From: an uncultured Alphaproteobacteria bacterium
GTDB lineage: Bacteria > Pseudomonadota > Alphaproteobacteria > Micropepsales > Micropepsaceae
Reading direction: 5' to 3'
DNA length: 64,000 nucleotides
Assembly (NCBI GenBank): GCA_963708555.1
Contig: CAVPTF010000014.1
Coordinates: 33,123-97,122, forward strand
Shown here: positions 1 through 55,925 of the stretch, one piece after another
Layout: each line of letters opens with the position of its first letter
How positions within the stretch are numbered: the first letter of the stretch is position 1
Made by a program: the position numbers and the translations under genes
Notes under the pieces: model-generated
Told to the model about the DNA's origin: nothing
Databases searched by the model: none
What the model saw: the letters and a program-made list of their open reading frames with translations, nothing else

Positions 1-486
1 TTACGCGGCGGAGCGAGCGCGCAATATATCGGTCTCGAGACGGACATAGCTCGCCTCCATGCCGTGCTCCATGCCGCTTGCGAGCATGGCCGCGCGCGTC
101 TCGGCGTTGGGCAGCGTCATGCGCATGGTCATCAGCGTGCCTTTGCCGTCGGGCTCGAATGTCGTCTCGACATGATTGTCCGGCGTGGGGTCGGGGAGAT
201 GCATCCGCTCGACATGCACGATGCGGCGGAAGGGGTTGAGCTCGATGAACTCTCCGGTGAGGTAGAAGCCGCCGCCTTTGCCGTCGCTCCACTCGTAGCG
301 GATCTTGCCGCCCGGCCGCGCATCGTTGATGCAGACGGGCATTGTCCAGCCGTCGGGACCTGTCATCCATTTCTGAACCAGCTTCGGCTCGACATGCGCG
401 CGGTAGACCGCTTCAGGGGACGCAGCGAAGCGCCGTTTCACGATGACGTGCGTGTCACCTTCCGTGGTAAGCGTCAGTTTGGTCAT
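1..486 (-). CDS. SRPBCC/AHSA1-like domain protein
   Basis: Intact 162-codon ORF (MTKLTLTTEGDTHVIVKRRF...MEASYVRLETDILRARSAA). The sequence pattern is typical of the Aha1/SRPBCC fold. Its ATG overlaps the TGA of the upstream ArsR gene (ATGA at 483-486), the usual ArsR+SRPBCC pairing. Confidence 0.75.
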   Translation of the reverse strand: MTKLTLTTEGDTHVIVKRRFAASPEAVYRAHVEPKLVQKWMTGPDGWTMPVCINDARPGGKIRYEWSDGKGGGFYLTGEFIELNPFRRIVHVERMHLPDPTPDNHVETTFEPDGKGTLMTMRMTLPNAETRAAMLASGMEHGMEASYVRLETDILRARSAA

Positions 487-825
487 GACTTTTCCTTTCC
501 TTCCTGGGGGGCCATTTCGGCGAGGACGGAGTCCAGCCGGTCGTAATTCGCTTCCAGCGCTTTCCTCAGCATTTCGAGCCATCGTTCCATCGAAGCCAGT
601 CCCTCCTTGGCGAGGCGGCAGGGACGGCGTGTGCCGTCCACGCGGCGCGTGATCAGGCCTGCGTCCTCCGAGCACCTTCAGGTGGCGGGAAACGGCCGGC
701 TGCGTGATCTCGAACGGCTCGGCCAGTTCCATGACGCCCGCTTCGCCCAAGGCAAGCCTCGCGAGGATGGCCCGCCGGGTCGGGTCGGCGAGGGCGGAAA
801 AGGCGGTATCCAGCGTCTGCATCAT
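483..825 (-). pseudogene. ArsR/SmtB-family transcriptional regulator, frame broken by one extra base
   Basis: MQTLDTAFSALADPTRRAILARL...ITQPAVSRHLKVL is a classic ArsR wHTH. After HLKVL the frame is lost (ctcGgaggac, near 665-670). The shifted frame continues EDAGLITRRVDGTRRPCRLAKEGL...APQEGKEKS to TGA 483-485. An AAGGA RBS precedes ATG 825. Confidence 0.75.
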
Positions 826-941
826 CAGCAATCCTTTATATAAGTAATATATTATATAACATAGATGCTGATGTCAACGGGAAAATGCAAAGGGCCGCGC
901 CGTTTTGCTGGACGCGGCCCCATTCTTTTCCAAACAATAGG

Positions 942-1808
942 TTAGGTGAGGTTCGCCTTGAACGCCGCCATCGTGCGGCTCCAGGCGAGCTTCGCCGCGT
1001 CCGCGTTGTAACGCTGGCCGGTGTCGTCGTTGAACGCGTGCTGTGCGCCCGGATAAAACCGCATCTCGTATCGGATGCCCGCCTTCTTGAGCGCTTCCTC
1101 ATACGCGGGCGCAGCCATGCCGAGAGTTCTTGTCGAGCTCGGGATCGGCGAAATTGATCAGCATCGCGGCCTTGATCTTGGGCACGTCCTCGGACGGCGG
1201 CGGTGCGCCGTAGAACGGCACGCCGATATTGAGCATCGGATCGGCGACGGCGAGCCGGTTGACCACGCCTCCGCCCCAGCAGAACCCGACCGCACCGACC
1301 TTGCCGTTCGACTCGGAGAGCGAGCGCAGATAGTTCGCGCCGGCGACCGCGTTGCCTGTCGGTCTCTTCCGGTTTCAGCGAGCGCGTCAGCGCTCGCGAC
1401 TTCGGGATTGCGCGGCACCGGCGTGCCGCCGAGCGGAGACAAGAAGTCGACGCCGAGCGCGATGAACCCATCCACCGCGAGACGGCGGCAGACGTCTTCG
1501 ATGTGCGGGCTGATGCCGCCGACCGCGTGGATCACTTCCACCGCGCCATGCCGGCCGGAGGCTGTGGGCTTCGCGAGATAGGCCTTCACGTCTCCGGTGA
1601 CGCCCTTGAACGTCACGCGCGATGTCGTGACCCGCTGATCGTCGGGGGCGACCATCGCCGCTTTGGCGTCATCGGGCGCGAGCAGGGGCAAGAGGGCCGC
1701 GGCCGCGGATACGCTGCCGACGATCCTTGCCGCCTTCTCCAGGAAGACGCGACGGTCGAAATGCACGTGAGCGTAGTCGTGATAGAGATCGATGAGCCTT
1801 TGATCCAT
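942..1808 (-). pseudogene. dienelactone hydrolase family protein with RRxFLE Tat-type leader, about 3 frame changes
   Basis: The N-terminus reads MDQRLIDLYHDYAHVHFDRRVFLEKAARIVGSVSAAAALLPLLA...VEVIHAVGGISPHIEDVCRRLAVDGFIALGVDF. Later parts (ALTRSLKPEETD; GNAVAGANYLRSLSESNGKVGAVGFCWGGGVVNRLA; LGMAAPAYEEALKKAGIRYEMRFYPGAQHAFNDD...AAFKANLT*) lie in other frames. Frame changes are near 1398, 1350 and 1125. A GGGAGG RBS is present. Confidence 0.7.
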
Positions 1809-1943
1809 GGCGAACCTCCCGGCTTTGCGCTGCCTTTATAGCAAATCGGCCGCGCGCTTGGCGCCTGATCACCGGCTCGTGCGCTTGGCAGGTGAGGGGC
1901 AGGGTGGCAAATTCCACCCAACGACGAATGGGAGGCCGCCCCA

Positions 1944-3889
1944 ATGCCAAAAACGGAATCGAAAACCCCGAAGATGAAGCGCCGCCAGTTCCTGGCGGGT
2001 GTCGCCGCCGCGGGGCCCGCGATCGGGCTCGCCGGTGCAGCCGGCAAGGCCGCCGCGGCCCAGGCGCCCGCGCGTCCGACCGTGCCCGCGACGCCGCACA
2101 ACGAGCACGCATCTCGGCTCCTCGACGCCGCTCACGCAGGGGCGCTCCGGCTCGGACTTCATGGTCGATGCGATCAAGACGCTCGACATCGAGTACGTCG
2201 CCTGCCTTCCCGCGGCGACGTTCCGCGGCTTGCAGGAATCGCTGATCAATTACGGCAAGAACACCAAGCCCGAATTCGTCTTGACGCTGCATGAAGAGGT
2301 CGCGGTGGCGATGGCGCATGGCTACGCCAAGGTCGCGCGCAAACCGATGGCCGCGATGATCGGCGGCATCATCGGCCTGCAGCACGCCTCGATGGCGATC
2401 TACAACGCCTATGCCGACCGCGTGCCGATGCTGATCCTCTCGGGCAACATTCCGAACGCCGCCGCGCGCCGCCCGAACGTCGAGTGGAACCATTCGGCGC
2501 TCGATCAGAACGCGATGGTGCGCGACTTCGTCAAATGGGACGCGCAGCCGACGTCGCTGCAATCCACCGCCGAGGCGCTGGTGCAGGCCTACGACCTCGC
2601 GACCATCGCACCGATGGGGCCGACGCTCGTGACGCTCGATGCGGACCTTCAGGAAGAAGGACTGCCGCAGGAGGAAGAGGCGCATTTGCGCATTCCGAAG
2701 CTCCGTCCGCGCGGACATCCGCAAGCCGACACGGAGGGCTTGCGCGAGGCGGCGCGCATGCTGGCGGGTGCCGAAAATCCGGTGATCTACGTGAACCGCT
2801 ACGGCCGCACGGAGAAGGGACCGGCGCTGCTCGATCGAGCTCGCGGAGCTCTTGAATGCGCCGGTCATCGACGGCCGCTTCCGCATGAACTTCCCGAGCC
2901 GCCACAAATTCAATCACTCCGGCCGCCGCGAACAGGTGCTGTCGCAGGCCGATGTGATCCTCGCGCTCGAGCCGCACGATCTGTGGGGCTTGACCAACGA
3001 GGTGCGCGATCTGATCGGCCGGCCGAATTCGCAGCTCAACCGTCAGGCCAATCTGAAGGTCATCCATATCGGCACCGAGAACCTGATGGCTCGCGGGAAT
3101 TACGCCGAGTCGCAGCGTTATGCGGCGGCCGATATCTCGCTGCCCGGCGACGCCGAAGCCTCGATGCCCGCGCTGCTCGAAGCGCTGAAGCGCGAGCTGA
3201 CGCCGGCCCGCACCACGGCGCTTCAAGCGCGCGGTCAGCGTCTCGCCGAGATGGCGCCGCGTCTGCTCGAACAGGCGCGCGCGGATGCAGTGCATGGCTG
3301 GAACGCAAGCCCGATCTCGGTCCCGAGACTGTGCATGGAGCTCTACGAGAACCTGCGCACCGTGGACTGGACGCTGCCGACGGAGACCGTGTTCCTCACC
3401 GATTGGCCGCACCGTCTGTGGAACATCGACAAGCCGCACAACTGGATCGGCGGCTCGGGCGCGCAAGGTGTGGGCTACAACGCGCCGGCCGCGCTGGGCG
3501 CCGCACTCGCCAACAAGGGCACGGGCCGCATCACGGCCGCGATCGTCGGCGACGGCGAGCTGATGATGACCAACCAGACGCTCTGGACCGCGGCGCGCTA
3601 CCAGATCCCGATCCTCTATCTCGTGCACAACAATCGCGCCTACCACATGGAGATCATGCACACGGGGCGCATGGCGATGCGGCGCAGCCGCGACGTCAAC
3701 CAGATGCGGCTCGGCTGCGACATCAGCGGTCCCAACATCGACTACGCCACGCTGGCGAAATCGATGGGCGTCTATGGCCAGGGGCCGATCGAGAATCCGA
3801 ACGATCTCGGGCCGGCGATCCGCCGCGCGATCGACGTGGTCAAGCGCGGCGAGCCCGCGCTGATCGACGTCGTCTCGCAGCCGCGCTGA
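1944..3889 (+). pseudogene. Tat-exported thiamine-diphosphate enzyme (acetolactate synthase / pyruvate oxidase superfamily), copy 1, two frame changes
   Basis: A GGGAGG RBS precedes MPKTESKTPKMKRRQFLAGVAAAG...AAAAQA, a twin-arginine leader. The N-domain reads GSDFMVDAIKTLDIEYVA...LHEEVAVAMAHGYAK...MLILSGN, followed by a central domain. The C-domain carries IVGDGELMMTNQTLWTAARYQIPILYLVHNN (GDG..NN TPP/Mg motif). Segments run in frames 0, 1, 2, with changes near 2105 and 2830. The track shows it as 1944..2294, part of 1999..4272, and 2852..3889. Confidence 0.8.
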
Positions 3890-3901
3890 GGAGGGGAACG
3901 G

Positions 3902-4249
3902 GTGAACATCTCTCTGCGTATTCTGGCGCTCGCGCTGATCGCGCTTCCCATGGCCGCGTCCGCGCAAGACGGACCGCGCGGCAATGCGGAGAACGGCAAA
4001 CGGCTGTTCGACACGAAAGCCTGCTTCGCCTGCCACGGCTATGTCGGCCAGGGCAGCCGCGAGGGACCGCGCGTCGCGCCGCCGATGCCGTTCCCGGCCT
4101 TCGTCGCCCAGCTGCGCGAGCCGCGCGGGATCATGCCGCCCTACAAGGAGGCGATCCTGACGGACCAGGAGGCCGCCGACATCGTCGCCTATCTGGCGGG
4201 CCTGCCGCGGTCCCCGGACCACAAATCCATCCCGCTGCTGCAGAATTAG
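3902..4249 (+). CDS. monohaem c-type cytochrome (exported)
   Basis: Signal peptide MNISLRILALALIALPMAASA, a single CFACH motif and a distal IMPPYKE Met. GTG start with a GAGGAGGGG RBS, 12 nt after the TPP gene stop. Confidence 0.85.
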   Translation: MNISLRILALALIALPMAASAQDGPRGNAENGKRLFDTKACFACHGYVGQGSREGPRVAPPMPFPAFVAQLREPRGIMPPYKEAILTDQEAADIVAYLAGLPRSPDHKSIPLLQN

Positions 4250-4351
4250 ACGCCGGGGCCAATTCCACGTAACCGCCTTGGAAATCCCCCGGGCGGGTGG
4301 CAAATTGCGGCTCAAGGATCACCACGCACAAAATCCGCCGGAGGGCAGTCC

Positions 4352-6282
4352 ATGGCCAAGAAGATCAAGCGCCGTCAGTTCCTTGCGGGCGTTGCCGCAG
4401 CCCCGGCCGTGGGGCTTGCCGCGGCCGCAGCACCGGCGGTCGCCCAGGCCGCAGCCGCGCCCAGGCCATCGATCCCGGCGGTGGCGGGCGAAGACCGCTC
4501 GCTGAACGATCTTCCGCCGCAGACCATCGGCAAGACCGGGTCGGATTTCATGGTCGACGTGCTGAAGTCGGTCGGCATCGACTACATCGCCTCGTGCCCC
4601 GGCTCGACCTTCCGCGCCATCCATGAATCGATCATCACCTACGGCAACAATTCGAAGCCCGAGTTCCTGACGACGCTGCACGAAGATACGTCGGCCGCGA
4701 TGTGCCACGGCTACGCGAAGATCGCGAAGAAGCCGATGGCCTGCATGGTCCACGGCACGGTCGGCCTGCAGCACGCGTCGATGGCGATCTACAACGCCTT
4801 TGCCGACCGCGTGCCGATGCTGATCCTCTCCGGCAATATCGGCAACGTCACCACGCGCCAGGTCATCGTCGAGTGGAACCACGCGTGCAGGACCAGGCCG
4901 CGATCGTCCGCGACTTCACCAAGTGGGACGACCAGCCGACCTCGCTGCAAGGATTTGCCGAGTCCACCGTGCGCGCGATGGACCTGATGCAGACCGCGCC
5001 GATGGGACCGGTCCTCATCACCGCGGACGCCGATCTTCAGGAAGATCCGATCCCGCCGGAGATCGAAAAGCGCCTCAAGATCCCGGTGCTGAAAGGCATG
5101 CGCACGCAGCCTTCGGGCGACATCTCCGCGGTGCGCGAAGCGGCCAAGATGCTGGTCGCCGCCGAGAACCCGGTGATCTTCACCTATCGCTACGCCCGCA
5201 CCGAGGCCGCGCCTGGGTTGCTCGTGCAACTGGCCGAATTGCTGCACGCGCCCGTGGTCGACGGCCGCGGCCGCATGAACATCCCGAACAGGCATCCGCT
5301 CAATCACACGACGCGCCGCGAAGCCGCACTCGCCGAGGCCGATCTCATCCTTGCGCTCGAACCGGTCGATGTTTTCGGTCTCACCACGAACATTCCCGAT
5401 ATCGTGCACCGGCCGAACATCCCGGCGCGCCGCAACCCGAATCTGAAGATCATCCAGATCGGCGCGGAAATGCTGATGCCGAAGGCGAACTTCCAGAACT
5501 TCCAGCGCTTCGCCTCGATCGATCTGAACATCAACGGCGATGCCGAGGCGACCATGCCGAGCCTGATCGAAGCCGTGAAGGCCGAGATCACGCCCGCGCA
5601 CAAGGCCCGCTTCGAGGCGCGTGGACAGAAGCTGAAGCCACTGGTCGAACGCTCGCTCGCGCAGCGCATGACGGATGCCACGTATCAGTGGGACGCCAAG
5701 CCCATCAGCAGCCCGCGCTTTGTGATGGAGCTCTGGAACCAGATCAAAAACGAGGACTGGGCGCTGCCTTCGGAATCGCAGTTCTTGAGCGAGTGGCCCT
5801 ATTTCATGTGGGACATCAACAAGCCCTACCAGACGATGGGGTACTCGGGCGCGCAGGGCATCGGCTACAACTCACCGGCAGCACTCGGCGCCGCGCTTGC
5901 CAACAAGGAGCACGGCCGCCTGACGGTCGCGATGGTCGGCGACGGCGATCTCAACATGGCGCCGGGCGTGCTGTGGACGGCGGCGCATCACCGCATCCCG
6001 ATCCTCTATCTCGTGCACAACAACCGTTCCTACCATCAGGAAGTGATGATGATCCTGAAGATGGCCGCGCGGCGTTCGCGCGTGAACCATCCGAACATCT
6101 ATGTCGGCACGCTGATCGACGATCCCGCGCCCAACTACGCCAAGATCGCTGAGGGCTACGGCCTCTACGCGCAAGGGCCGGTCGAGGATCCGAAGGACCT
6201 CGCGGCGGCGATCAAGCGCGCCATCGAGGTCGTGAAGCGCGGTGAGCCCGCGCTGATCGACATCATCTCCGACGGACGCTGA
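4352..6282 (+). pseudogene. Tat-exported thiamine-diphosphate enzyme, copy 2 (paralogue of 1944..3889), one frame change
   Basis: A GGAGGG RBS precedes MAKKIKRRQFLAGVAAAPAVGLAAAAAPAVAQA, a twin-arginine leader. The body includes GSDFMVDVLKSVGIDYIA...LHEDTSAAMCHGYAK and MVGDGDLNMAPGVLWTAAHHRIPILYLVHNN. The frame changes near 4884 (EWNH | VQDQAAIVRDFTKWDDQ), joining ORFs 4352..4987 and 4702..6282. Confidence 0.8.
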
Positions 6283-6312
6283 GGTATAGACCGATGAAGA
6301 CCATTCGAGTTC

Positions 6313-6645
6313 GTGGTGATGATGGGCACGGCGGTTGTTCTGGGCTCGGCCGCGAGCGTGGTGGCTCAGCCGGCGGGCGATCCGAAGGCGGGCGAGACGG
6401 CCTATATGAAGCTCGGGTGCTATTCGTGTCATGGCGCGGGGGGCCAGGGGACCTGGCGCGACGGGCCGCGGCTCAATCCGCCGATGCCGTTCGAAGCGAT
6501 GGTGCAGCAGCTGCGCACGCCGCGCTACGAGATGCCGCCTTATGTCGAGAGCCAGGTCTCCGACAAGGGCATCGCCGACATCCACGCGTATCTCAGAAGC
6601 GTGCCGAAGCCGGTCGATCCGAGCGTCATCAAGGCGATGCAGTAG
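6313..6645 (+). CDS. monohaem c-type cytochrome (exported)
   Basis: VVLGSAASVVAQP signal-like N-terminus, a single CYSCH motif and a distal EMPPYVE Met. The start may really be ATG 6294 (MKTIR..., GAGG RBS). That ATG is in another frame and would imply one more indel near 6305. Confidence 0.8.
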   Translation: MVMMGTAVVLGSAASVVAQPAGDPKAGETAYMKLGCYSCHGAGGQGTWRDGPRLNPPMPFEAMVQQLRTPRYEMPPYVESQVSDKGIADIHAYLRSVPKPVDPSVIKAMQ

Positions 6646-7896
6646 TCACTTCGCCTGCGCCTGGATTTGGCCTGCAACTTTGTCGAGCCAGTCGGCGATC
6701 ACGCGCGCGATGTCGTCGCTGTTCTTCTCCATCATCATCATGTGGCCGTTGCCCTTGATGCCGATGTCGGCGAGCTTGATGAACTCGACCGGCACGCCCG
6801 CCTGCCTGAGATAGGCAACGTTGCAGTGGTTGTACCCGGCGTAGAACGAGGCTTCCGCCTCGATCAGGAGAACCGGCCGCTCGCCCACGAGCGGAAGCTT
6901 TCGCGCGGGCTCCTTCTGCATCCAGCAGCGTGAGAGATCGGGCCGCTCGGGCTTTTCCTGCTGCACGAAATCGAGCGGAGAGTCTGCCGTCACGGCGGGC
7001 GTATATTCGAGCGGCGTATTGCCGAGCCCGTAACGTTTCACGCCGGGATTGTCGCGGTAGTAGTCGTCATCGGTCTGCTTGGTGGCGCCGTCCCACGCGA
7101 CGTCGAAGCGCTGGATGCTTTTCACCACGACGTCGTGCACCGGCGGGCCCGAAGGCTCCGCCGCGACGATCGCCTTCACGAGCGCCGGTCGCATCTGCGC
7201 CAGCGGCCACGCATAGGCGCCCGATTGCGAATGCACGAGGATGATCGACGGACCGATCCTGTCGAGCAGCGCGGCAAGCGCATCGATGTTCATCTGCGCC
7301 TGCATGACGCGGTTTTCCATGCCTGGAATGTTCGAGGCCCAATACTGATCGAACGTCGGATCGCCCGGCTCGCCGGTTCCCGGCCATTGCGTGTGCAGCG
7401 CCGCCTGCGGCCAGAGCTTCTCTTTCTCCTGCGCGGTGAACTTCTGCACGACATAGCCGAGCGGCTGCGCGCTCATCTCGCCGTAGACTTCGGGGCTGTA
7501 GGGCGAGCGGCCGCGCGCCACCTGGTCCACGACATAGACGGCGTAACCGCGGCGCAGGAAATACTGCGCCCATCCTGGACGCCCGTCGGACGTCGTCCAC
7601 CAGCCGGCGCCGGTCTGACCGCCGCCGTGGATCAGCACGATGGGATAGGGGTGACGCTGATCCGCCGGGATCTGGTACTCGACATACATCTGCCCGACGT
7701 AATGCTGATCGGGATGATCCTTGTCGTAGCGCCCACCGGCGTAGAACACGCCGCTCTTCGCAAGCACGAGCGCGGCCTGCGTCTGCGCCTCAGCGCCGGT
7801 CGGCGCTTCAACGGTGTTCATCAGCAGCGGGAAGCCGATCAGCGCGGCGCCGAAAAGGCCGCCGGCCGCGAACAGAGTCAAATTCCTCACCATCAT
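6646..7896 (-). CDS. secreted alpha/beta-fold hydrolase
   Basis: Intact ORF with a GAGGAGGA RBS. Signal peptide MMVRNLTLFAAGGLFGAALIGFPLLMNTVEA. LIHGGGQTG oxyanion-type motif and VHSQSGA nucleophile elbow. The upstream 370 aa of track ORF 6646..9003 are an out-of-frame shadow of the NiCoT gene. Confidence 0.7.
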   Translation of the reverse strand: MMVRNLTLFAAGGLFGAALIGFPLLMNTVEAPTGAEAQTQAALVLAKSGVFYAGGRYDKDHPDQHYVGQMYVEYQIPADQRHPYPIVLIHGGGQTGAGWWTTSDGRPGWAQYFLRRGYAVYVVDQVARGRSPYSPEVYGEMSAQPLGYVVQKFTAQEKEKLWPQAALHTQWPGTGEPGDPTFDQYWASNIPGMENRVMQAQMNIDALAALLDRIGPSIILVHSQSGAYAWPLAQMRPALVKAIVAAEPSGPPVHDVVVKSIQRFDVAWDGATKQTDDDYYRDNPGVKRYGLGNTPLEYTPAVTADSPLDFVQQEKPERPDLSRCWMQKEPARKLPLVGERPVLLIEAEASFYAGYNHCNVAYLRQAGVPVEFIKLADIGIKGNGHMMMMEKNSDDIARVIADWLDKVAGQIQAQAK

Positions 7897-7961
7897 GGGA
7901 ATGTCCTCCTCGTTCGCAGCGATGATCGCGCAAACGGGAGGGCAGAAAAGAGTAGGGTCGA

Positions 7962-9038
7962 CTATTCCGCCGGTACTTGCGCGGCTGCCGGGCTCTCGAG
8001 CTGGTCGTAGCCCTTGTAGCGATAGATCGCGACCGACAGGGCCCAACTCGCGATGAAGAGCGCGATGATCAGATAGCCGAGCGCGCCGAATTCCTCGTTC
8101 AGCATCGCGATCCAGTCCCAGACGCCGCCGGAGAGCGCGAGCTTCTCGGCGATGAGCCCGAGCGCCTGCACGCCGCCGATCAGGAGCGCCACCACGACCG
8201 AGACCGATGTGATCGTCAGATTGTAATAGAGCTTGCGGATCGGCTTCACGAACGCCCAGCCATAGGCGCGCACCATCAGCACGGAATCGGTGGTGTCGAC
8301 GAGACTCATTCCGGCGGTGAACAGCAGCGGAAAGATCAGAAGCGACCAGAACGACAGGCCTTGCGCGGCCTGCGACGCGGAGATCCCGAGCACGCCGATC
8401 TCGGTCGCGGTGTCGAAGCCGAGCCCGAACAGGAAGCCCAGGGGATACATCTGCCAGCTCGCGCGGATGAAGCGGAACAGCGGCCGGAACAGGCGGCCCA
8501 AGAGCCCGCGGTTCGCGAGCAGGATGTTGAGATCGTCCTCGACGACCGGCTCGCCGCGCTTGACGCGCTGGAACGCTTTGTACACGGCGGCGAGGATGAA
8601 GATGTTGGCGATGGCGATGGCGAACAGGAACAGCGTGGAGACGGTCGTCCCGATGACGCCGCCGATCTCGCCGAAGCTTTCGAGCCCCGAGAGCGCGGTG
8701 GCGCCCAGCGCAACCACGATCGATGCGAGCACGACGACGGTCGAATGGCCGAGCGAGAAATAGAGCCCTACGGTCGAAGGGTCTTGCCCTTCCTGCATCA
8801 GCTTGCGCGTCACGTTGTCGATGGCGGCGATGTGGTCGGCATCGACCGCGTGCCTGAGACCGAAGCTGTAGGCGAGAAGCGCGGTGCCCAGGAGCACCGG
8901 ATGATCGGCGAACGCGACAAGCGCCCAGATCCAGGCCGCGATGTTGACGCCGATCAGGCCGGTGTAGATCGCAATCAGTTTCGCGGTGATCGGCGCTGAA
9001 CACGCGCGACGTTCATCCGGCCTTCCTGACATGGACAT
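7962..9038 (-). CDS. HoxN/HupN/NixA-family nickel/cobalt transporter (NiCoT)
   Basis: Polytopic membrane protein with the NiCoT signature LRHAVDADHIAAIDN and a second FGLGFDTATE motif. Its start overlaps the nikR stop by about 26 nt, consistent with an operon. Confidence 0.85.
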   Translation of the reverse strand: MSMSGRPDERRACSAPITAKLIAIYTGLIGVNIAAWIWALVAFADHPVLLGTALLAYSFGLRHAVDADHIAAIDNVTRKLMQEGQDPSTVGLYFSLGHSTVVVLASIVVALGATALSGLESFGEIGGVIGTTVSTLFLFAIAIANIFILAAVYKAFQRVKRGEPVVEDDLNILLANRGLLGRLFRPLFRFIRASWQMYPLGFLFGLGFDTATEIGVLGISASQAAQGLSFWSLLIFPLLFTAGMSLVDTTDSVLMVRAYGWAFVKPIRKLYYNLTITSVSVVVALLIGGVQALGLIAEKLALSGGVWDWIAMLNEEFGALGYLIIALFIASWALSVAIYRYKGYDQLESPAAAQVPAE

Positions 9039-9489
9039 GCACGTGCTTGTGGCTGTGCTCGCCCGCGTGCGCGTGCTTTTCCGACTGCACCTCGGCGGGC
9101 ACCATCACAAGGCGGCCGTGCCGCACGCCGCGTTCGGCGATCACATGGTCGGCGAGATGCTTCACCTCGCTCGCCTGGCCTCTGAGCACGGCGACCTCGA
9201 GACACGTGCCGTGATCGAGATGCACATGCATCGCGGAGAGCGACAGATCGTGGTGGTCGTGGAAGGAATGCGTGAGGCGCTTCGCAAGCTCGCGCGAGTC
9301 GTGGTCGTAGACATAGACGAGAGCCGCGACGCAATCGCCGGTGACGCTGCTCTCTTCCGCCGCCTGGCGCATGCCGGCGCGTGCGAGATCGCGGATCGCT
9401 TCCGAGCGGTTCTGGTAGCCGCGTTCGGCAATCACGCGGTCGAGCTCGGCCACGAATTCGTCGTCGAGAGCGATGGTTGCGCGCTGCAT
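9013..9489 (-). CDS. nikR: nickel-responsive regulator NikR
   Basis: Ribbon-helix-helix N-terminus MQRATIALDDEFVAELDRVIAERGYQNRSEAIRDLAR. C-terminal metal-binding region HDHHDLSLSAMHVHLDHGTCLEV plus a His-rich tail. I prefer ATG 9489 over the track start 9522. Confidence 0.85.
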   Translation of the reverse strand: MQRATIALDDEFVAELDRVIAERGYQNRSEAIRDLARAGMRQAAEESSVTGDCVAALVYVYDHDSRELAKRLTHSFHDHHDLSLSAMHVHLDHGTCLEVAVLRGQASEVKHLADHVIAERGVRHGRLVMVPAEVQSEKHAHAGEHSHKHVHVHVRKAG

Positions 9490-9503
9490 ACAGGCCTCCG
9501 ACC

Positions 9504-9531
9504 GTATGATCTTCAGGCCCAAAAATCACAC
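9504..9531. promoter_or_regulatory. candidate NikR operator GTATGA-N16-TCACAC
   Basis: GTATGA (9504-9509), an exact 16-nt spacer, then TCACAC (9526-9531), 15-42 nt upstream of the nikR ATG. The E. coli NikR operator is GTATGA-N16-TCATAC, so 11 of 12 positions match. Confidence 0.55.
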
Positions 9532-9656
9532 TCTTGTCCCCATGGCAAGCGTGCGGATGGCGCTGGTTTCCGCCCCGAAAGGTGCGGAGCAGGACGGCTT
9601 GTCCGGGAGCCGCCTGAGGCTGCAAACTGCTGGCACAGCCACAATCGGAGGTTGCC

Positions 9657-10611
9657 ATGGAGAAGCGGAAACTCGGCCGGTCGGGTCTCGAGGTCGCGCC
9701 CATCGTGTTCGGCGGCAACGTGTTCGGCTGGAGCGTCGATCAGGCGCGCGCGAACACGCTGCTCGATCGATTTGTCGATCTCGGCTTCAACGCCATCGAC
9801 ACGGCGAACTCCTATCCGCGCTGGGTTCCGGACAGTCTCGACGGCGAGTCCGAAATCATCATCGGCAAATGGCTGAAGACGAGCGGCAAACGCGACCGCG
9901 TTCTGATCTTCACCAAAGTGGGCTCCGAGATTTCGGCGGACAGGAAAGGCCTGTCGCGCCGTCATATCGTCGCCGAGTGCGAAGGCTCGCTGAAGCGGCT
10001 CGGGATCGACACGATCGATCTCTATCAGTCGCACCGGGATGACCTGTCCACACCGATGGAGGAGACGCTCACGGCCTATGCCGATCTGATCAAGGCGGGA
10101 AAGGTGCGCGCGATCGGCGCATCCAATTTCACGCGCGCAGCGTCTGAAGGAAGCTCATCGACACGTCGCGCCGTCTGAAGCTGCCGCGCTACGATACGCT
10201 GCAGCCGAAATACAATCTCTACGATCGGTCGGATTATGAAGGGCCGCTCGTCGGATCTCTGCGTCAAGGAAGAGATCGGCGTCATTCCGTATCTACGCGC
10301 TCGCGAATGGATTCCTCACCGGCAAGTATCGCGGGCCCGCGGATTTCGGAAAGAGCGCCGCGCGCGGAAGCCGCATGGGCAGCTATCTCAACGAGCGCGG
10401 CAAGCGCATTCTCGCGGCTCTCGATACCGTCTCGGCGAAGCACAAAGTGAAGCCCGCCGCGGTCGCACTCGCGTGGCTGATGTCGCGCCCGATGGTGATC
10501 CCGATCGCGAGCGCGACCAAACCCGAGCAGCTCGAAGATTTCGCCGATGCCGCAAGAATCCGGCTCGACCGCGACGATCTCGAACAACTGAACCTCGCCA
10601 GCGCGGGCTAG
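9657..10611 (+). pseudogene. aldo/keto reductase, four +1 frame changes
   Basis: A GGAGG RBS precedes MEKRKLGRSGLEVAPIVFGGNVFGW...IDTANSYP...IDLYQSHRDD...IGASNFT. The segments AQRLKEA / LIDTSRRLKLPRYDTLQPKYNLYDRSDYEGPL / DLCVKEEIGVIPY / ALANGFLTGKYRGPADFGKS...IPIASATKPEQLEDF then follow in frames 1, 2, 0, 1. Changes are near 10135, 10153, 10252 and 10295. Confidence 0.75.
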
Positions 10612-10692
10612 TACCTTCCTTGCTCGCGGAGGAAAGCCTAGACTAACGAGAACCAACAGAAATTCGATTGTTCATCGCGGGAGGACGCTTCC

Positions 10693-12180
10693 ATGCACGG
10701 CACGACGATCCCTTATTTCACCGGCAAGATGCTGATCGGCGGCGAGCTGGTCGAAAGCAAGGACGGCGGCTGGCTCGAATCGATCAATCCCGCGGACGAG
10801 ACGCAGCTTGGGCGCGTGCCGATGGGCACGGCCGCCGACATGGCGGCCGCCGTCGAAGCCGCGGAGAAGGCGCAGCCCGCGTGGGCCGCGCTCACCAATG
10901 CGCAGCGCGCCGACTACATCCACAAGCTCGGCGATGCGCTGATGGCGCGCCAGGAAGAGATCGCGCGCATCGAGTCGCTCGACACCGGCAACACGCTCGG
11001 GCCCATGAAGCGCGACGTGCGCACGGCCGTCGAGCGCATGCGGTTCGCCTGCGGCCTCGCCTACGAGATCAAGGGCGAGACCGTTCCTTCGACGCCCGGC
11101 AACATCCACATGACGATCCGCACGCCCTATGGCGTGATCGGCCGCATCATTCCGTTCAATCATCCGATCGGGTTTGCCGCGTCGCGCATCGCGCCCGCGA
11201 TCATCTCGGGCAACACCATCGTGGTGAAGCCGTCGGAGCAGAGCCCGCTGTCGTCGTCGATCTTGGGCGAGATCTGCAAGCAGATCATGCCGCCGGGCGT
11301 CGTCAACATCGTCACCGGCGGCCGCGAGACCGGCGAGACGCTCGTGCGTCATCCGCGCGTCAAGCGCATCGCGTTCATCGGCCAGCCGGCATCGGGCATG
11401 GCGATCCAGAAGGCGGCCGCCGAAACCGCGGTGAAACATGTGACGCTCGAACTGGGCGGCAAGAATCCGCTGATCGCGTTTCAAGATGCCGATATCGAGA
11501 AGGTCGCGCAATGCGCGGTCGGCGGGATGAATTTCGGCTGGCAGGGTCAGTCCTGCGGCTCGATGAGCCGCATCGTGCTGCATGAATCGATCCACGACGC
11601 GGTGCTCGAGAAGATTCTCGAGCGCGTGCGGAAGATCAAGGTCGGCCATCCGCTCGATCCGACGACGAACATGGGCCCGATCAACAACAAGCAGCAATAC
11701 GGCAAGGTGCAGTTCTATATCGATCTCGCCAAGAAGGAGGGCGCGAAGCTCCTGCATGGCGGCGGCGTGCCGCAAGGCGACGAGTTCAAGCGCGGCTATT
11801 GGGTCGAGCCGACCGTGTTCGGCGACGTCAACATGTCGATGCGCATCGCCAAGGAAGAAGTGTTCGGCCCGGTCATGTCGGTGCTGAAATTCTCGACCGA
11901 ATCCGAAGCGGTCACGATGGCCAACGGCATCGAGCTCGGGCTCACGGCGGCCGTCTGGACGAACGACATCAACCGCGCGATCCGCGTCGCGCAGGCGGTG
12001 CAGGCGGGCTACATCTGGATCAACGGCGTCGGCCAGCATTATCGCGGCGTGCCGTATGGCGGCTTCAAGAATTCCGGCGTCGGGCGCGAGGAGGGCATCA
12101 GCGAGCTCTTGAGCTACACCGAAGAGAAGGTGATCAACATCGTGCTCGGCGGCGGCGACTACAACCCGGCGGCGGGCTGA
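10693..12180 (+). CDS. NAD(P)-dependent aldehyde dehydrogenase family protein
   Basis: Intact 495-aa ORF with a GGGAGGA RBS. ALDH motifs are VTLELGGKNP (catalytic Glu) and GQSCGSMSR (catalytic Cys), with EEVFGPV near the C-terminus. No signal peptide. Confidence 0.9.
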   Translation: MHGTTIPYFTGKMLIGGELVESKDGGWLESINPADETQLGRVPMGTAADMAAAVEAAEKAQPAWAALTNAQRADYIHKLGDALMARQEEIARIESLDTGNTLGPMKRDVRTAVERMRFACGLAYEIKGETVPSTPGNIHMTIRTPYGVIGRIIPFNHPIGFAASRIAPAIISGNTIVVKPSEQSPLSSSILGEICKQIMPPGVVNIVTGGRETGETLVRHPRVKRIAFIGQPASGMAIQKAAAETAVKHVTLELGGKNPLIAFQDADIEKVAQCAVGGMNFGWQGQSCGSMSRIVLHESIHDAVLEKILERVRKIKVGHPLDPTTNMGPINNKQQYGKVQFYIDLAKKEGAKLLHGGGVPQGDEFKRGYWVEPTVFGDVNMSMRIAKEEVFGPVMSVLKFSTESEAVTMANGIELGLTAAVWTNDINRAIRVAQAVQAGYIWINGVGQHYRGVPYGGFKNSGVGREEGISELLSYTEEKVINIVLGGGDYNPAAG

Positions 12181-12195: not shown

Positions 12196-13077
12196 ATGCT
12201 CGCCCGTCCGCGCGATCGCATCCTTGCGCTTCCCTTGATGGCGCTCGCCGCTGTCGGACTCGCCGGGTGCGAGCAGCCGACCGCGACGACATCGTCAACG
12301 CCTGCGGCGGCGACGCAATCGGAAGGTGTGCCGCCGCCGGAAGGCGAAGAGTATGGCGAGTTCCTCGCGCGTCCCGCCGAGCTTGCCGCCGTTCCGACCA
12401 ACGACATCATGAAGTCGCTGCGTCTGTCCTCGTCCGCCAAGACGGTCGGCATGGACGTGTACAATCGTGCTTGCGCGTCGTGCCACGGGGCCGATCTGAA
12501 GGGCTTGCGCGAGCAAGGCACGCCCGATCTCACCGATGCCAATTGGCGATTTGCCGGAGATGACGCGACGACGGGAGGCGGCACGATATACCCGTCCGAC
12601 ATCGAATGGACGGTGCGCTACGGCATCCGCTCGGGACACGAAAATGCCCGCGGCCGCGAAGCGAACATGGTCGCGTTCGATCCGCGATATCGCCACGAGG
12701 AGGACAGGGCGATTTACGGCGGCAGGCGGTTCCTCACGAACGGCGAGATCGACGATGTCGTCGAGTATGTGCTCAAGATCAGCGGGCAGCAGGCGGACGA
12801 GGCCAAGGCCGCGCGCGGCGACGAGCTGTTCCACGACGGCACCAGGGGCAACTGCAACGACTGTCACGAGAACGATGGCGTCGGAAACCTGGCGCTGGGC
12901 TCGACGAACCTGACGCGGCCCGAGCTCTATCTCTACGGCTCGGATCGGGCGTCGATCCTCGAATCGATCGTGCGCGGGCGCCGCGGCACGATGCCTGCGT
13001 TCGAAGGCCAGCTGAAGCCGGAGGAGATCAAGGCGGTCGCGATCTACCTCTATTACCGCGCGCTTCCGCCGCCGTAG
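12196..13077 (+). CDS. dihaem c-type cytochrome lipoprotein (CcoP-like soluble domains)
   Basis: Lipobox LAGC after MLARPRDRILALPLMALAAVG. Two haem motifs, CASCH and CNDCH, with MPAF near the end. It starts 16 nt after the ALDH stop. Confidence 0.8.
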   Translation: MLARPRDRILALPLMALAAVGLAGCEQPTATTSSTPAAATQSEGVPPPEGEEYGEFLARPAELAAVPTNDIMKSLRLSSSAKTVGMDVYNRACASCHGADLKGLREQGTPDLTDANWRFAGDDATTGGGTIYPSDIEWTVRYGIRSGHENARGREANMVAFDPRYRHEEDRAIYGGRRFLTNGEIDDVVEYVLKISGQQADEAKAARGDELFHDGTRGNCNDCHENDGVGNLALGSTNLTRPELYLYGSDRASILESIVRGRRGTMPAFEGQLKPEEIKAVAIYLYYRALPPP

Positions 13078-54147: not shown

Positions 54148-54222
<75 letters not shown>

Positions 54223-55818: not shown

Positions 55819-55832
55819 CCCCGTCCAAAGCG

Positions 55833-55861
55833 AAAAAAAGGGCCGTCCCGAAGGACGGCCC
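55833..55861 (-). terminator. intrinsic terminator (minus-strand orientation)
   Basis: On the minus strand, GGGCCGUCC-UUCG-GGACGGCCC (9-bp GC stem, UUCG loop) is followed by U7 (A7 at 55833-55839 on the plus strand). In the plus orientation it is followed only by AAGUUUA. Confidence 0.8.
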
Positions 55862-55925
55862 AAGTTTAGGGAGGAAACGCCCCGGACGGGGCCGCGGCAC
55901 GCAGGAGGAGTAAGCAATGCCGCAC
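55833..55925 (-). ncRNA. candidate trans-acting small RNA with two C/U-rich anti-SD motifs (possibly MmgR/alpha-r8- or AbcR-like)
   Basis: The minus strand reads: hairpin GCGGCA/UGCCGC with an 18-nt loop containing CUCCUCC; a GCCCC-GUCC-GGGGC hairpin; single-stranded GUUUCCUCCCUAAAC; then a perfect terminator plus U7. No plausible ORF is present. The 5' end is inferred from promoter-like hexamers only. Confidence 0.5.

Follow-up and report, generated by a model that had tools for sequence, protein, structure and literature searches.

The 64,000-nucleotide stretch analyzed here (the window), part of contig CAVPTF010000014.1 from an uncultured alphaproteobacterium of the family Micropepsaceae, carries at positions 1944-6645 two tandem gene modules, each consisting of a gene for a thiamine pyrophosphate (TPP) enzyme with a candidate twin-arginine leader (TPP-A and TPP-B) and a gene for a small cytochrome c (cytA and cytB). 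All four genes lie on the forward strand in the open reading frame (ORF) list and the three-frame translations. In the proposed reading, each module would encode a TPP-dependent oxidoreductase of the periplasm along with the monohaem cytochrome c next to it, which would accept its electrons as a dedicated partner; this reading is drawn from sequence comparison and is favored slightly above even odds (a probability of roughly 0.55).

Gene content of the two modules

The preliminary description of this DNA reported two paralogues of about 640 amino acids (aa) with 55-65% identity, each containing the three domains of the TPP superfamily, and both points were confirmed on the frame-repaired proteins (648 and 643 aa), which align over 642 positions with 56% identity (E = 0). 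The Pfam scores exceed the gathering cutoffs for TPP_enzyme_N, TPP_enzyme_M, and TPP_enzyme_C in TPP-A (71.9, 31.7, and 107.5 bits) and in TPP-B (72.7, 38.9, and 89.4 bits). The activating glutamate, previously noted in LHEE or LHED, was found in TLHEE in TPP-A and TLHED in TPP-B, and the GDG-X24-NN cofactor motif, also noted before, reads IVGDGELMMTNQ...LVHNN in TPP-A and MVGDGDLNMAPG...LVHNN in TPP-B. The predicted leaders (KMKRRQFLAGVAAAG...AAAAQA in TPP-A and KIKRRQFLAGVAAAP...AVAQA in TPP-B) are both of the KRRQFLAGVAAA type, with RRQFL, an alanine-rich hydrophobic region, and an AQA or AVA-QA end.

The proteins of about 110 aa that had been described 12-30 nt downstream of each enzyme, with one CxxCH and an MPPY methionine, are present as cytA and cytB, which share 45% identity (E = 3e-28) and match both Pfam Cytochrom_C and Cytochrome_CBB3 above the gathering score. 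Their N-termini are hydrophobic and end in ASA-QD and VVAQP, and on the basis of the signal, the CxxCH motif, the distal methionine, and the Pfam matches, they are assigned to the class I c-type cytochromes. The intergenic gaps are 12 nt between TPP-A and cytA, 102 nt between cytA and TPP-B, and 11-30 nt between TPP-B and cytB, and a GGAGG ribosome-binding site lies upstream of cytA. The true start of cytB is probably the ATG at 6294, upstream of a 1-nt insertion near 6313; the cytB orthologue in the related locus L077 is 117 aa long. A promoter and terminator scan gave nothing above shuffled expectation. Antisense ORFs over the modules (1669-2913, 2531-4315, 4789-5601, and 5872-6585) had no match in the Pfam scan and were rejected as genes, being regarded as GC-rich shadows.

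Conservation of the leader and pairing with the cytochrome

Among 5.8 billion proteins searched, more than 7000 matched, of which the top 120 were analyzed, and a genome scan restricted to one genome per species returned 367 stretches, from which the best 76 loci were kept. Nearly all of the 120 homologues are about 640 aa long, and an RRxFL-type motif occurs near the N-terminus in 113 of them, the remainder being truncated or having a mis-called start. The twin-arginine motif was also found in 74 of the 76 loci, with the two non-matching loci cut by contig ends. In two of the 74, L020 and L071, the match fell on residues that lie upstream or out of context; L020 itself contains RRRQFL, and L071 looks frameshifted. 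The twin-arginine leaders originally recognized on TPP-A and TPP-B are thus found in essentially all full-length orthologues, and by their motif, hydrophobic region, AxA site, and conservation, the two N-termini are predicted to be signals for twin-arginine translocation (Tat). Among the 74 loci whose sequence extends far enough downstream, 72 have a cytA/cytB homologue there, which begins no more than a few hundred nucleotides from the enzyme gene and usually 0-30 nt from it; the co-occurrence of leader and cytochrome, for which a genome survey had been suggested, is therefore a regular feature of the family.

The 76 loci are distributed over Micropepsaceae, Bradyrhizobium, Beijerinckiaceae, Rhodospirillales, Rhodopila, Gammaproteobacteria, Acidobacteriota, Gemmatimonas, and Dormibacterota, and in relatives, two or three modules share one locus and more lie elsewhere in the genome, often 2-5 per genome. 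Residues E114, G533-D534-G535, and N560-N561 are invariant across 109 family members, and the Cys-x-x-Cys-His motif with its distal methionine (C41, C44, H45, and M78) is invariant in 63 of 63 aligned partner cytochromes. In two of the most divergent Tat-bearing members (P0218 and P0222), the gene that follows the enzyme encodes a small cytochrome c. Natural fusions of enzyme and cytochrome were not found among the 120, 93, or 150 listed proteins. In three Acidobacteriota loci (L040, L051, and L057), the partner is a protein of 263-271 aa with two CxxCH motifs and not a monohaem cytochrome. The two loci without a downstream cytochrome, L020 (6001-7917) and L033 (6001-7911), form a leader-bearing subclade marked by a GTGVEWPH insertion and SGAGGVGY; in L033, a large M16-peptidase-like ORF lies downstream and a dihaem cytochrome lies far upstream on the other strand.

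Enzyme and cytochrome also co-evolve. Their pairwise distance matrices are correlated with r = 0.90, a value that is inflated by shared species history and that was not reached in any of 2000 Mantel permutations. TPP-A and cytA have their nearest relatives in the same loci (L012, L017, L016, and L013), those of TPP-B and cytB share one locus set (L001-L004 in both lists), and enzymes of type A or B are accompanied by cytochromes of the matching type. The pairwise match of paralogues within genomes shows that the two genes were duplicated together as one unit.

The boundary of the family was examined with a profile search over 1.84 billion representatives clustered at 50% identity, with 150 proteins listed. 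Among the matches listed, about 12 Tat-bearing full-length clusters score 660-876 bits, and the next step down consists of proteins of about 570-610 aa, whose alignment to the profile starts only at position ~55-66 and which lack a signal sequence. The mean identity between the Tat-bearing clade and this leaderless sister clade is 36%, and neither reaches the cutoff of any NCBIfam model, PRK08327 scoring best (uncharacterized; 243-273 bits for the window family and 239-293 bits for the sister clade against a cutoff of 456), followed by benzoylformate decarboxylase. No cytochrome neighbor was found beside the leaderless enzymes in the four of four members examined. Leader and cytochrome have thus been gained, or are kept, together, since both are absent in the sister-clade members examined and both are present in divergent Tat-bearing members.

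The surroundings of the leaderless enzymes contain further indications. In L084 (5001-8241), an aldehyde dehydrogenase gene lies directly downstream of the enzyme gene and TctAB transporter genes lie upstream, and in L090 (2688-5797), the enzyme gene adjoins LigA/LigB and a Rieske oxygenase, which hints that the wider clade may act on 2-oxoacids derived from the breakdown of aromatic compounds or tricarboxylates. These contexts fit a scenario in which a periplasmic enzyme that oxidizes in one step took the place of a cytoplasmic decarboxylase-plus-dehydrogenase route. Apart from the leader, the residues M70, N383, E402, H565, E567, and M569 never vary in the Tat clade and are replaced in the sister clade, and the last three (P0001 numbering) directly follow the NN motif in NNR-x-Y-H-Q-E-V-M. 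In other enzymes, this segment holds the catalytic Glu473 of Zymomonas pyruvate decarboxylase (NN+6) and the electron-relay phenylalanine of pyruvate oxidase (POX) and PoxB (about NN+5). Since the helix after the NN motif lines the active site, the chemistry may plausibly have changed relative to the sister clade.

Central domain, flavin, and the question of a redox function

The best sequence matches in the PDB are benzoylformate decarboxylases (BFDC; E about 1e-34), and the activating glutamate, the His70 equivalent, and a P-x-RHP loop are common to the family and the BFDC alignment. The AlphaFold2 model of P0001, the intact TPP-B orthologue of L077, has a predicted local distance difference test score of 84.9 with residues 1-49 disordered, in keeping with a leader and linker, and its Foldseek similarity is about equal to benzaldehyde lyase (BAL), BFDC, acetohydroxyacid synthase (AHAS), 2-hydroxyacyl-CoA lyase (HACL), and glyoxylate carboligase (GCL), with template modeling scores of 0.64-0.71 and 16-21% identity. 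The comparison of this model gave no substrate clue, and it places the family on a deep and separate branch of the TPP superfamily. The NCBIfam models for pyruvate oxidase (PRK08611; 95-103 bits against a cutoff of 742) and benzoylformate decarboxylase (PRK07092; 137-148 bits against a cutoff of 493) do not include the family as a member.

The preliminary description drew an analogy with POX-type enzymes, and this analogy is weakened by the flavin-free, BFDC-type character of the closest neighbors and by the central-domain loop, which is not glycine-rich. In the first beta-loop-alpha unit of the central domain, the family has PVIY-x-NRY-x-RTE, with R283, Y284, and R286 invariant and no G-x-G. 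A G-x-G type loop is present at this place in the members that bind flavin adenine dinucleotide (FAD), namely, AHAS, POX, PoxB, and GCL, and is missing in BFDC. FAD in the central domain thus seems unlikely. A POX/PoxB-like variant of the proposed function, in which FAD takes up two electrons and passes them singly to the cytochrome, would agree with the use of FAD by all known oxidative members of the superfamily, with the presence of the TPP_enzyme_M domain, and with the suitability of a flavin-loaded protein for Tat export. It is nevertheless judged distinctly improbable in view of the loop, the low pyruvate oxidase score, and the flavin-free nature of the best PDB match.

The same structural evidence is relevant to a second alternative, according to which the enzymes are periplasmic but non-oxidative (decarboxylase, carboligase, or C-C lyase), the cytochrome belongs to another process or is limited to structural or regulatory duties, and any aldehyde product is handled elsewhere, for example, by a nearby aldo-keto reductase and aldehyde dehydrogenase. 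The nearest solved relatives (BFDC, BAL, and HACL) are non-redox, the central domain is BFDC-like with the common P-x-RHP loop and no glycine-rich loop, and genes for an aldo-keto reductase and an aldehyde dehydrogenase are found 3-4 kb downstream in this lineage. This synteny is, however, confined to close relatives, with housekeeping neighbors in the Bradyrhizobium-type loci, whereas the cytochrome is retained directly downstream across phyla while all other neighbors vary, co-duplicates and co-diverges with the enzyme, and is absent beside the leaderless sister-clade enzymes examined. A non-oxidative function is accordingly held to be unlikely, and an oxidoreductase with the cytochrome as its acceptor is preferred.

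Frame breaks in the window

Both TPP genes had been described as frame-broken, and alignment to the intact relatives L082 and L077 located three single-base indels: 1-nt insertions at about 2109 and about 2834 in TPP-A and a 1-nt deletion at 4883 in TPP-B, each outside homopolymer runs. The window genes are 88-90% identical to those of L077 and L082 at the nucleotide level, and the window and L082 (87-89% identity) are not the same sequence. The intact TPP-A orthologue in L082 is 643 aa long, P0001 is 646 aa long and 96% identical to TPP-B, and both TPP genes are intact in a JGI contig.

Positions 1-12000 of the window are rich in single-base indels, which also occur in genes unrelated to the modules; for example, the aldo-keto reductase gene contains four 1-nt insertions within 160 nt (10133-10292), the ArsR-type regulator gene is broken by indels, and the dienelactone hydrolase gene is split into three pieces. 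Gene calls anywhere in the window therefore need frame repair. After repair, the TPP proteins keep all family-invariant residues, with no in-frame stops seen. The ratio of non-synonymous to synonymous substitution rates (dN/dS) against the relatives is 0.11 for TPP-A (against L082), 0.09 for cytA, 0.06 for TPP-B, and 0.24 for cytB, which points to purifying selection on all four genes.

If the frameshifts were real, the genes would be pseudogenes and the modules would be dead in this organism, a reading that could call on three breaks in the two TPP genes and probably another at the start of cytB. This is considered very unlikely since every break is a single-base indel in a non-homopolymer context, like indels affect the unrelated neighbors, repair leaves no in-frame stops and no loss of invariant residues, and dN/dS is 0.06-0.11 against relatives that carry intact genes. 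The earlier attribution of the frameshifts to an artifact is therefore retained at the strength of a probable explanation: they are probably sequence errors because similar indels are found in unrelated neighbors, dN/dS is low, and the residues of the repaired proteins are intact.

Proposed function of the modules

Under the oxidoreductase reading, the enzyme would fold and bind TPP and Mg2+ in the cytoplasm and would then be exported by Tat as a folded dimer or tetramer, and the cytochrome would be exported by Sec and would have its haem attached in the periplasm. The TPP ylide would attack a carbonyl substrate, most likely a 2-oxoacid and possibly an aldehyde or alpha-dicarbonyl. After decarboxylation, ferric cytochrome c would oxidize the hydroxyalkyl-TPP enamine in two one-electron steps, the acyl-TPP would be hydrolyzed to a carboxylic acid, and the reduced cytochrome would deliver its electrons to a terminal oxidase. 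Because the central domain looks flavin-free, the transfer from enamine to haem would probably be direct, comparable to the TPP radical in pyruvate:ferredoxin oxidoreductase (PFOR). The paralogous modules, of which relatives have two or three per locus, may serve different substrates.

The direction of electron flow is not given by the conserved pairing alone, which would also suit a cytochrome that donates electrons to a periplasmic TPP reaction of reductive or radical type. Class I cytochromes c with His/Met ligation normally have a high potential, far above that of TPP intermediates, and flow from enamine to haem is strongly downhill but the reverse is not, which makes a donor role highly improbable and leaves the acceptor role as the preferred one.

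Several observations weigh against an oxidoreductase with a dedicated cytochrome. The closest solved relatives, as mentioned above, catalyze non-redox reactions, the TPP genes of this particular window are frame-broken, and the subclade of L020 and L033 keeps the leader with no adjacent cytochrome. In addition, clustering of the ORFs of the 76 loci revealed no conserved third gene, such as a transporter or regulator, that points to a substrate, and we know of no precedent for direct electron transfer from TPP to haem c. The periplasmic enzyme-cytochrome dehydrogenase of the preliminary description is upheld in part: the conserved leader, the adjacent cytochrome, the probable nature of the frameshifts as sequence errors, and the failure to find a characterized orthologue in the sources searched agree with it, and its analogy with POX is weakened. 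The most far-reaching form of the proposal, that these are the first Tat-exported TPP enzymes and flavin-free periplasmic respiratory dehydrogenases that pass single electrons directly to the haem of a dedicated cytochrome and thereby allow bacteria to respire 2-oxoacids or related carbonyls without import, is more tentative and is placed somewhat below even odds.

Relation to known systems

The window family belongs to none of the families of PoxB, PFOR, or the pyrroloquinoline quinone (PQQ) and flavin dehydrogenases. With LpPOX and Escherichia coli PoxB, it has in common the three-domain TPP superfamily, and the chemistry proposed here, oxidative decarboxylation of a 2-oxoacid to an acid and CO2 with electrons passed to the respiratory chain, is that of PoxB. 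PoxB is, however, leaderless, acts at the cytoplasmic face of the membrane, contains FAD, has a C-terminal membrane-binding helix, and reduces quinone, whereas the window proteins lack the glycine-rich loop, are far below the NCBIfam cutoff, and have no such helix, ending 3-6 residues after the last beta-strand (637-643 of 646 in the model). BFDC and the PRK08327-like sister clade resemble the window family in providing the best PDB match and the best NCBIfam models and in having a short C-terminus, but identity to BFDC is only about 20%, neither has a leader or a cytochrome partner, and H565, E567, and M569 are specific to the window family.

PFOR and 2-oxoacid:ferredoxin oxidoreductase (OFOR) are likewise flavin-free TPP enzymes, in which hydroxyalkyl-TPP gives single electrons to a metal centre, and they are a precedent for direct transfer; they differ in having unrelated domains, [4Fe-4S] clusters in place of haem, a cytoplasmic location, CoA dependence, and oxygen sensitivity. 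Similarly, PQQ methanol dehydrogenase with cytochrome cL, p-cresol methylhydroxylase, and NicA2/CycN each combine an exported cofactor enzyme with its own adjacent class I cytochrome c, which links the enzyme to the respiratory chain, and such periplasmic dehydrogenases also occur as multiple paralogous modules per genome, but their cofactor is PQQ or flavin and never TPP. The window cytochromes are only remotely similar to theirs (E = 0.49 for the p-cresol methylhydroxylase subunit and E = 0.16 for cytochrome cL), and against the PDB, they show generic class I similarity, with actinobacterial QcrC domains as the best matches (E about 1e-8).

The characterized TPP enzymes of this superfamily are, to our knowledge, all cytoplasmic. 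In line with the earlier statement that no characterized example was known, no characterized orthologue was found in NCBIfam, the PDB, or the full-text literature searched. Nor did that literature describe any TPP enzyme that is periplasmic or exported by Tat, or TPP as the cofactor of an exported protein; most subscription journals lay outside it, and prior work is possible.

Neighboring genes and other loci

Only the enzyme and the cytochrome, along with antisense shadows of the two, form ORF clusters common to all 76 loci. The remaining clusters follow the synteny of particular lineages, with xerD, accA, aroK/aroB, and secA in the Bradyrhizobium-type loci and NicO, NikR, aldo-keto reductase, and aldehyde dehydrogenase in the Micropepsaceae-type loci. 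The coordinates of the modules and of other features of the window are given in Table 1.

Table 1. Features of the tandem modules and of the remainder of the window (positions in the window).
Feature	Position	Strand	Description
TPP-A	1944..3889	+	~648 aa after repair; three TPP domains; read in three frames
TPP-A candidate twin-arginine leader	1944..2066	+	MPKTESKTPKMKRRQFLAGVAAAGPAIGLAGAAGKAAAAQA; RRQFL motif, hydrophobic stretch, AxA site
cytA (cytochrome c A)	3902..4249	+	115 aa; Sec-type signal, CFACH, distal Met in MPPY
TPP-B	4352..6282	+	643 aa after repair; three TPP domains; read in two frames
TPP-B candidate twin-arginine leader	4352..4450	+	MAKKIKRRQFLAGVAAAPAVGLAAAAAPAVAQA
cytB (cytochrome c B)	6294..6645	+	ORF as read 6313-6645, 110 aa; CYSCH, MPPY
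ArsR-type regulator gene	about 1..831	-	
Dienelactone hydrolase gene	942..1808	-	
NicO-family Ni/Co transporter and NikR genes	7962..9038 and 9013..9522	-	adjoining the B-type module
Aldo-keto reductase gene	9657..10611		
Aldehyde dehydrogenase gene	10693..12180	+	leaderless
Dihaem cytochrome c gene	12196..13077	+	293 aa; lipoprotein-type signal (LAGC lipobox), CASCH and CNDCH; Pfam Cytochrome_CBB3 and Cytochrom_C
tRNA gene	54151..54222	-	
mmgR small RNA	55825..55899	-	Rfam RF00519, listed under ID suhB

The NicO and NikR genes also lie beside the B-type module in L077, L078, L080, and L082 and are absent from the Bradyrhizobium-type loci, and this neighborhood may represent either lineage synteny or a metal link. 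The dihaem cytochrome c gene starts 16 nt after the aldehyde dehydrogenase gene, and the same pair occurs in L082; the combination of a cytoplasmic dehydrogenase with an exported cytochrome is an odd one. The mmgR small RNA indicates that the DNA is alphaproteobacterial, which agrees with the Micropepsaceae-like character of the relatives. In L078 (5108-9883), a TonB-dependent receptor and a TPR protein are encoded between two modules, and in the P0002 contig and L080, a third module lies downstream of genes for an amine oxidase, an SBP_bac_3 binding protein, and a sensor kinase. The neighbors in L078, the P0002 contig, and L080 are possible, though inconsistent, clues to the substrate.

Biological significance

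If the proposed function is correct, a TPP enzyme that delivers electrons to the cytochrome c pool would join the PQQ, flavin, molybdenum, and haem enzymes as a new type of periplasmic dehydrogenase, and the passage of electrons from TPP to haem c would be a new electron-transfer route. The family is not rare, with hundreds of genome loci across several phyla, and its carriers in soil and freshwater, including Micropepsaceae, Bradyrhizobium, Beijerinckiaceae, Acidobacteriota, and others, would be the organisms to gain from such a route. The current annotation of these proteins as "acetolactate synthase large subunit" is almost certainly wrong. Many models of soil and peat genomes may therefore miss a catabolic, energy-conserving route.

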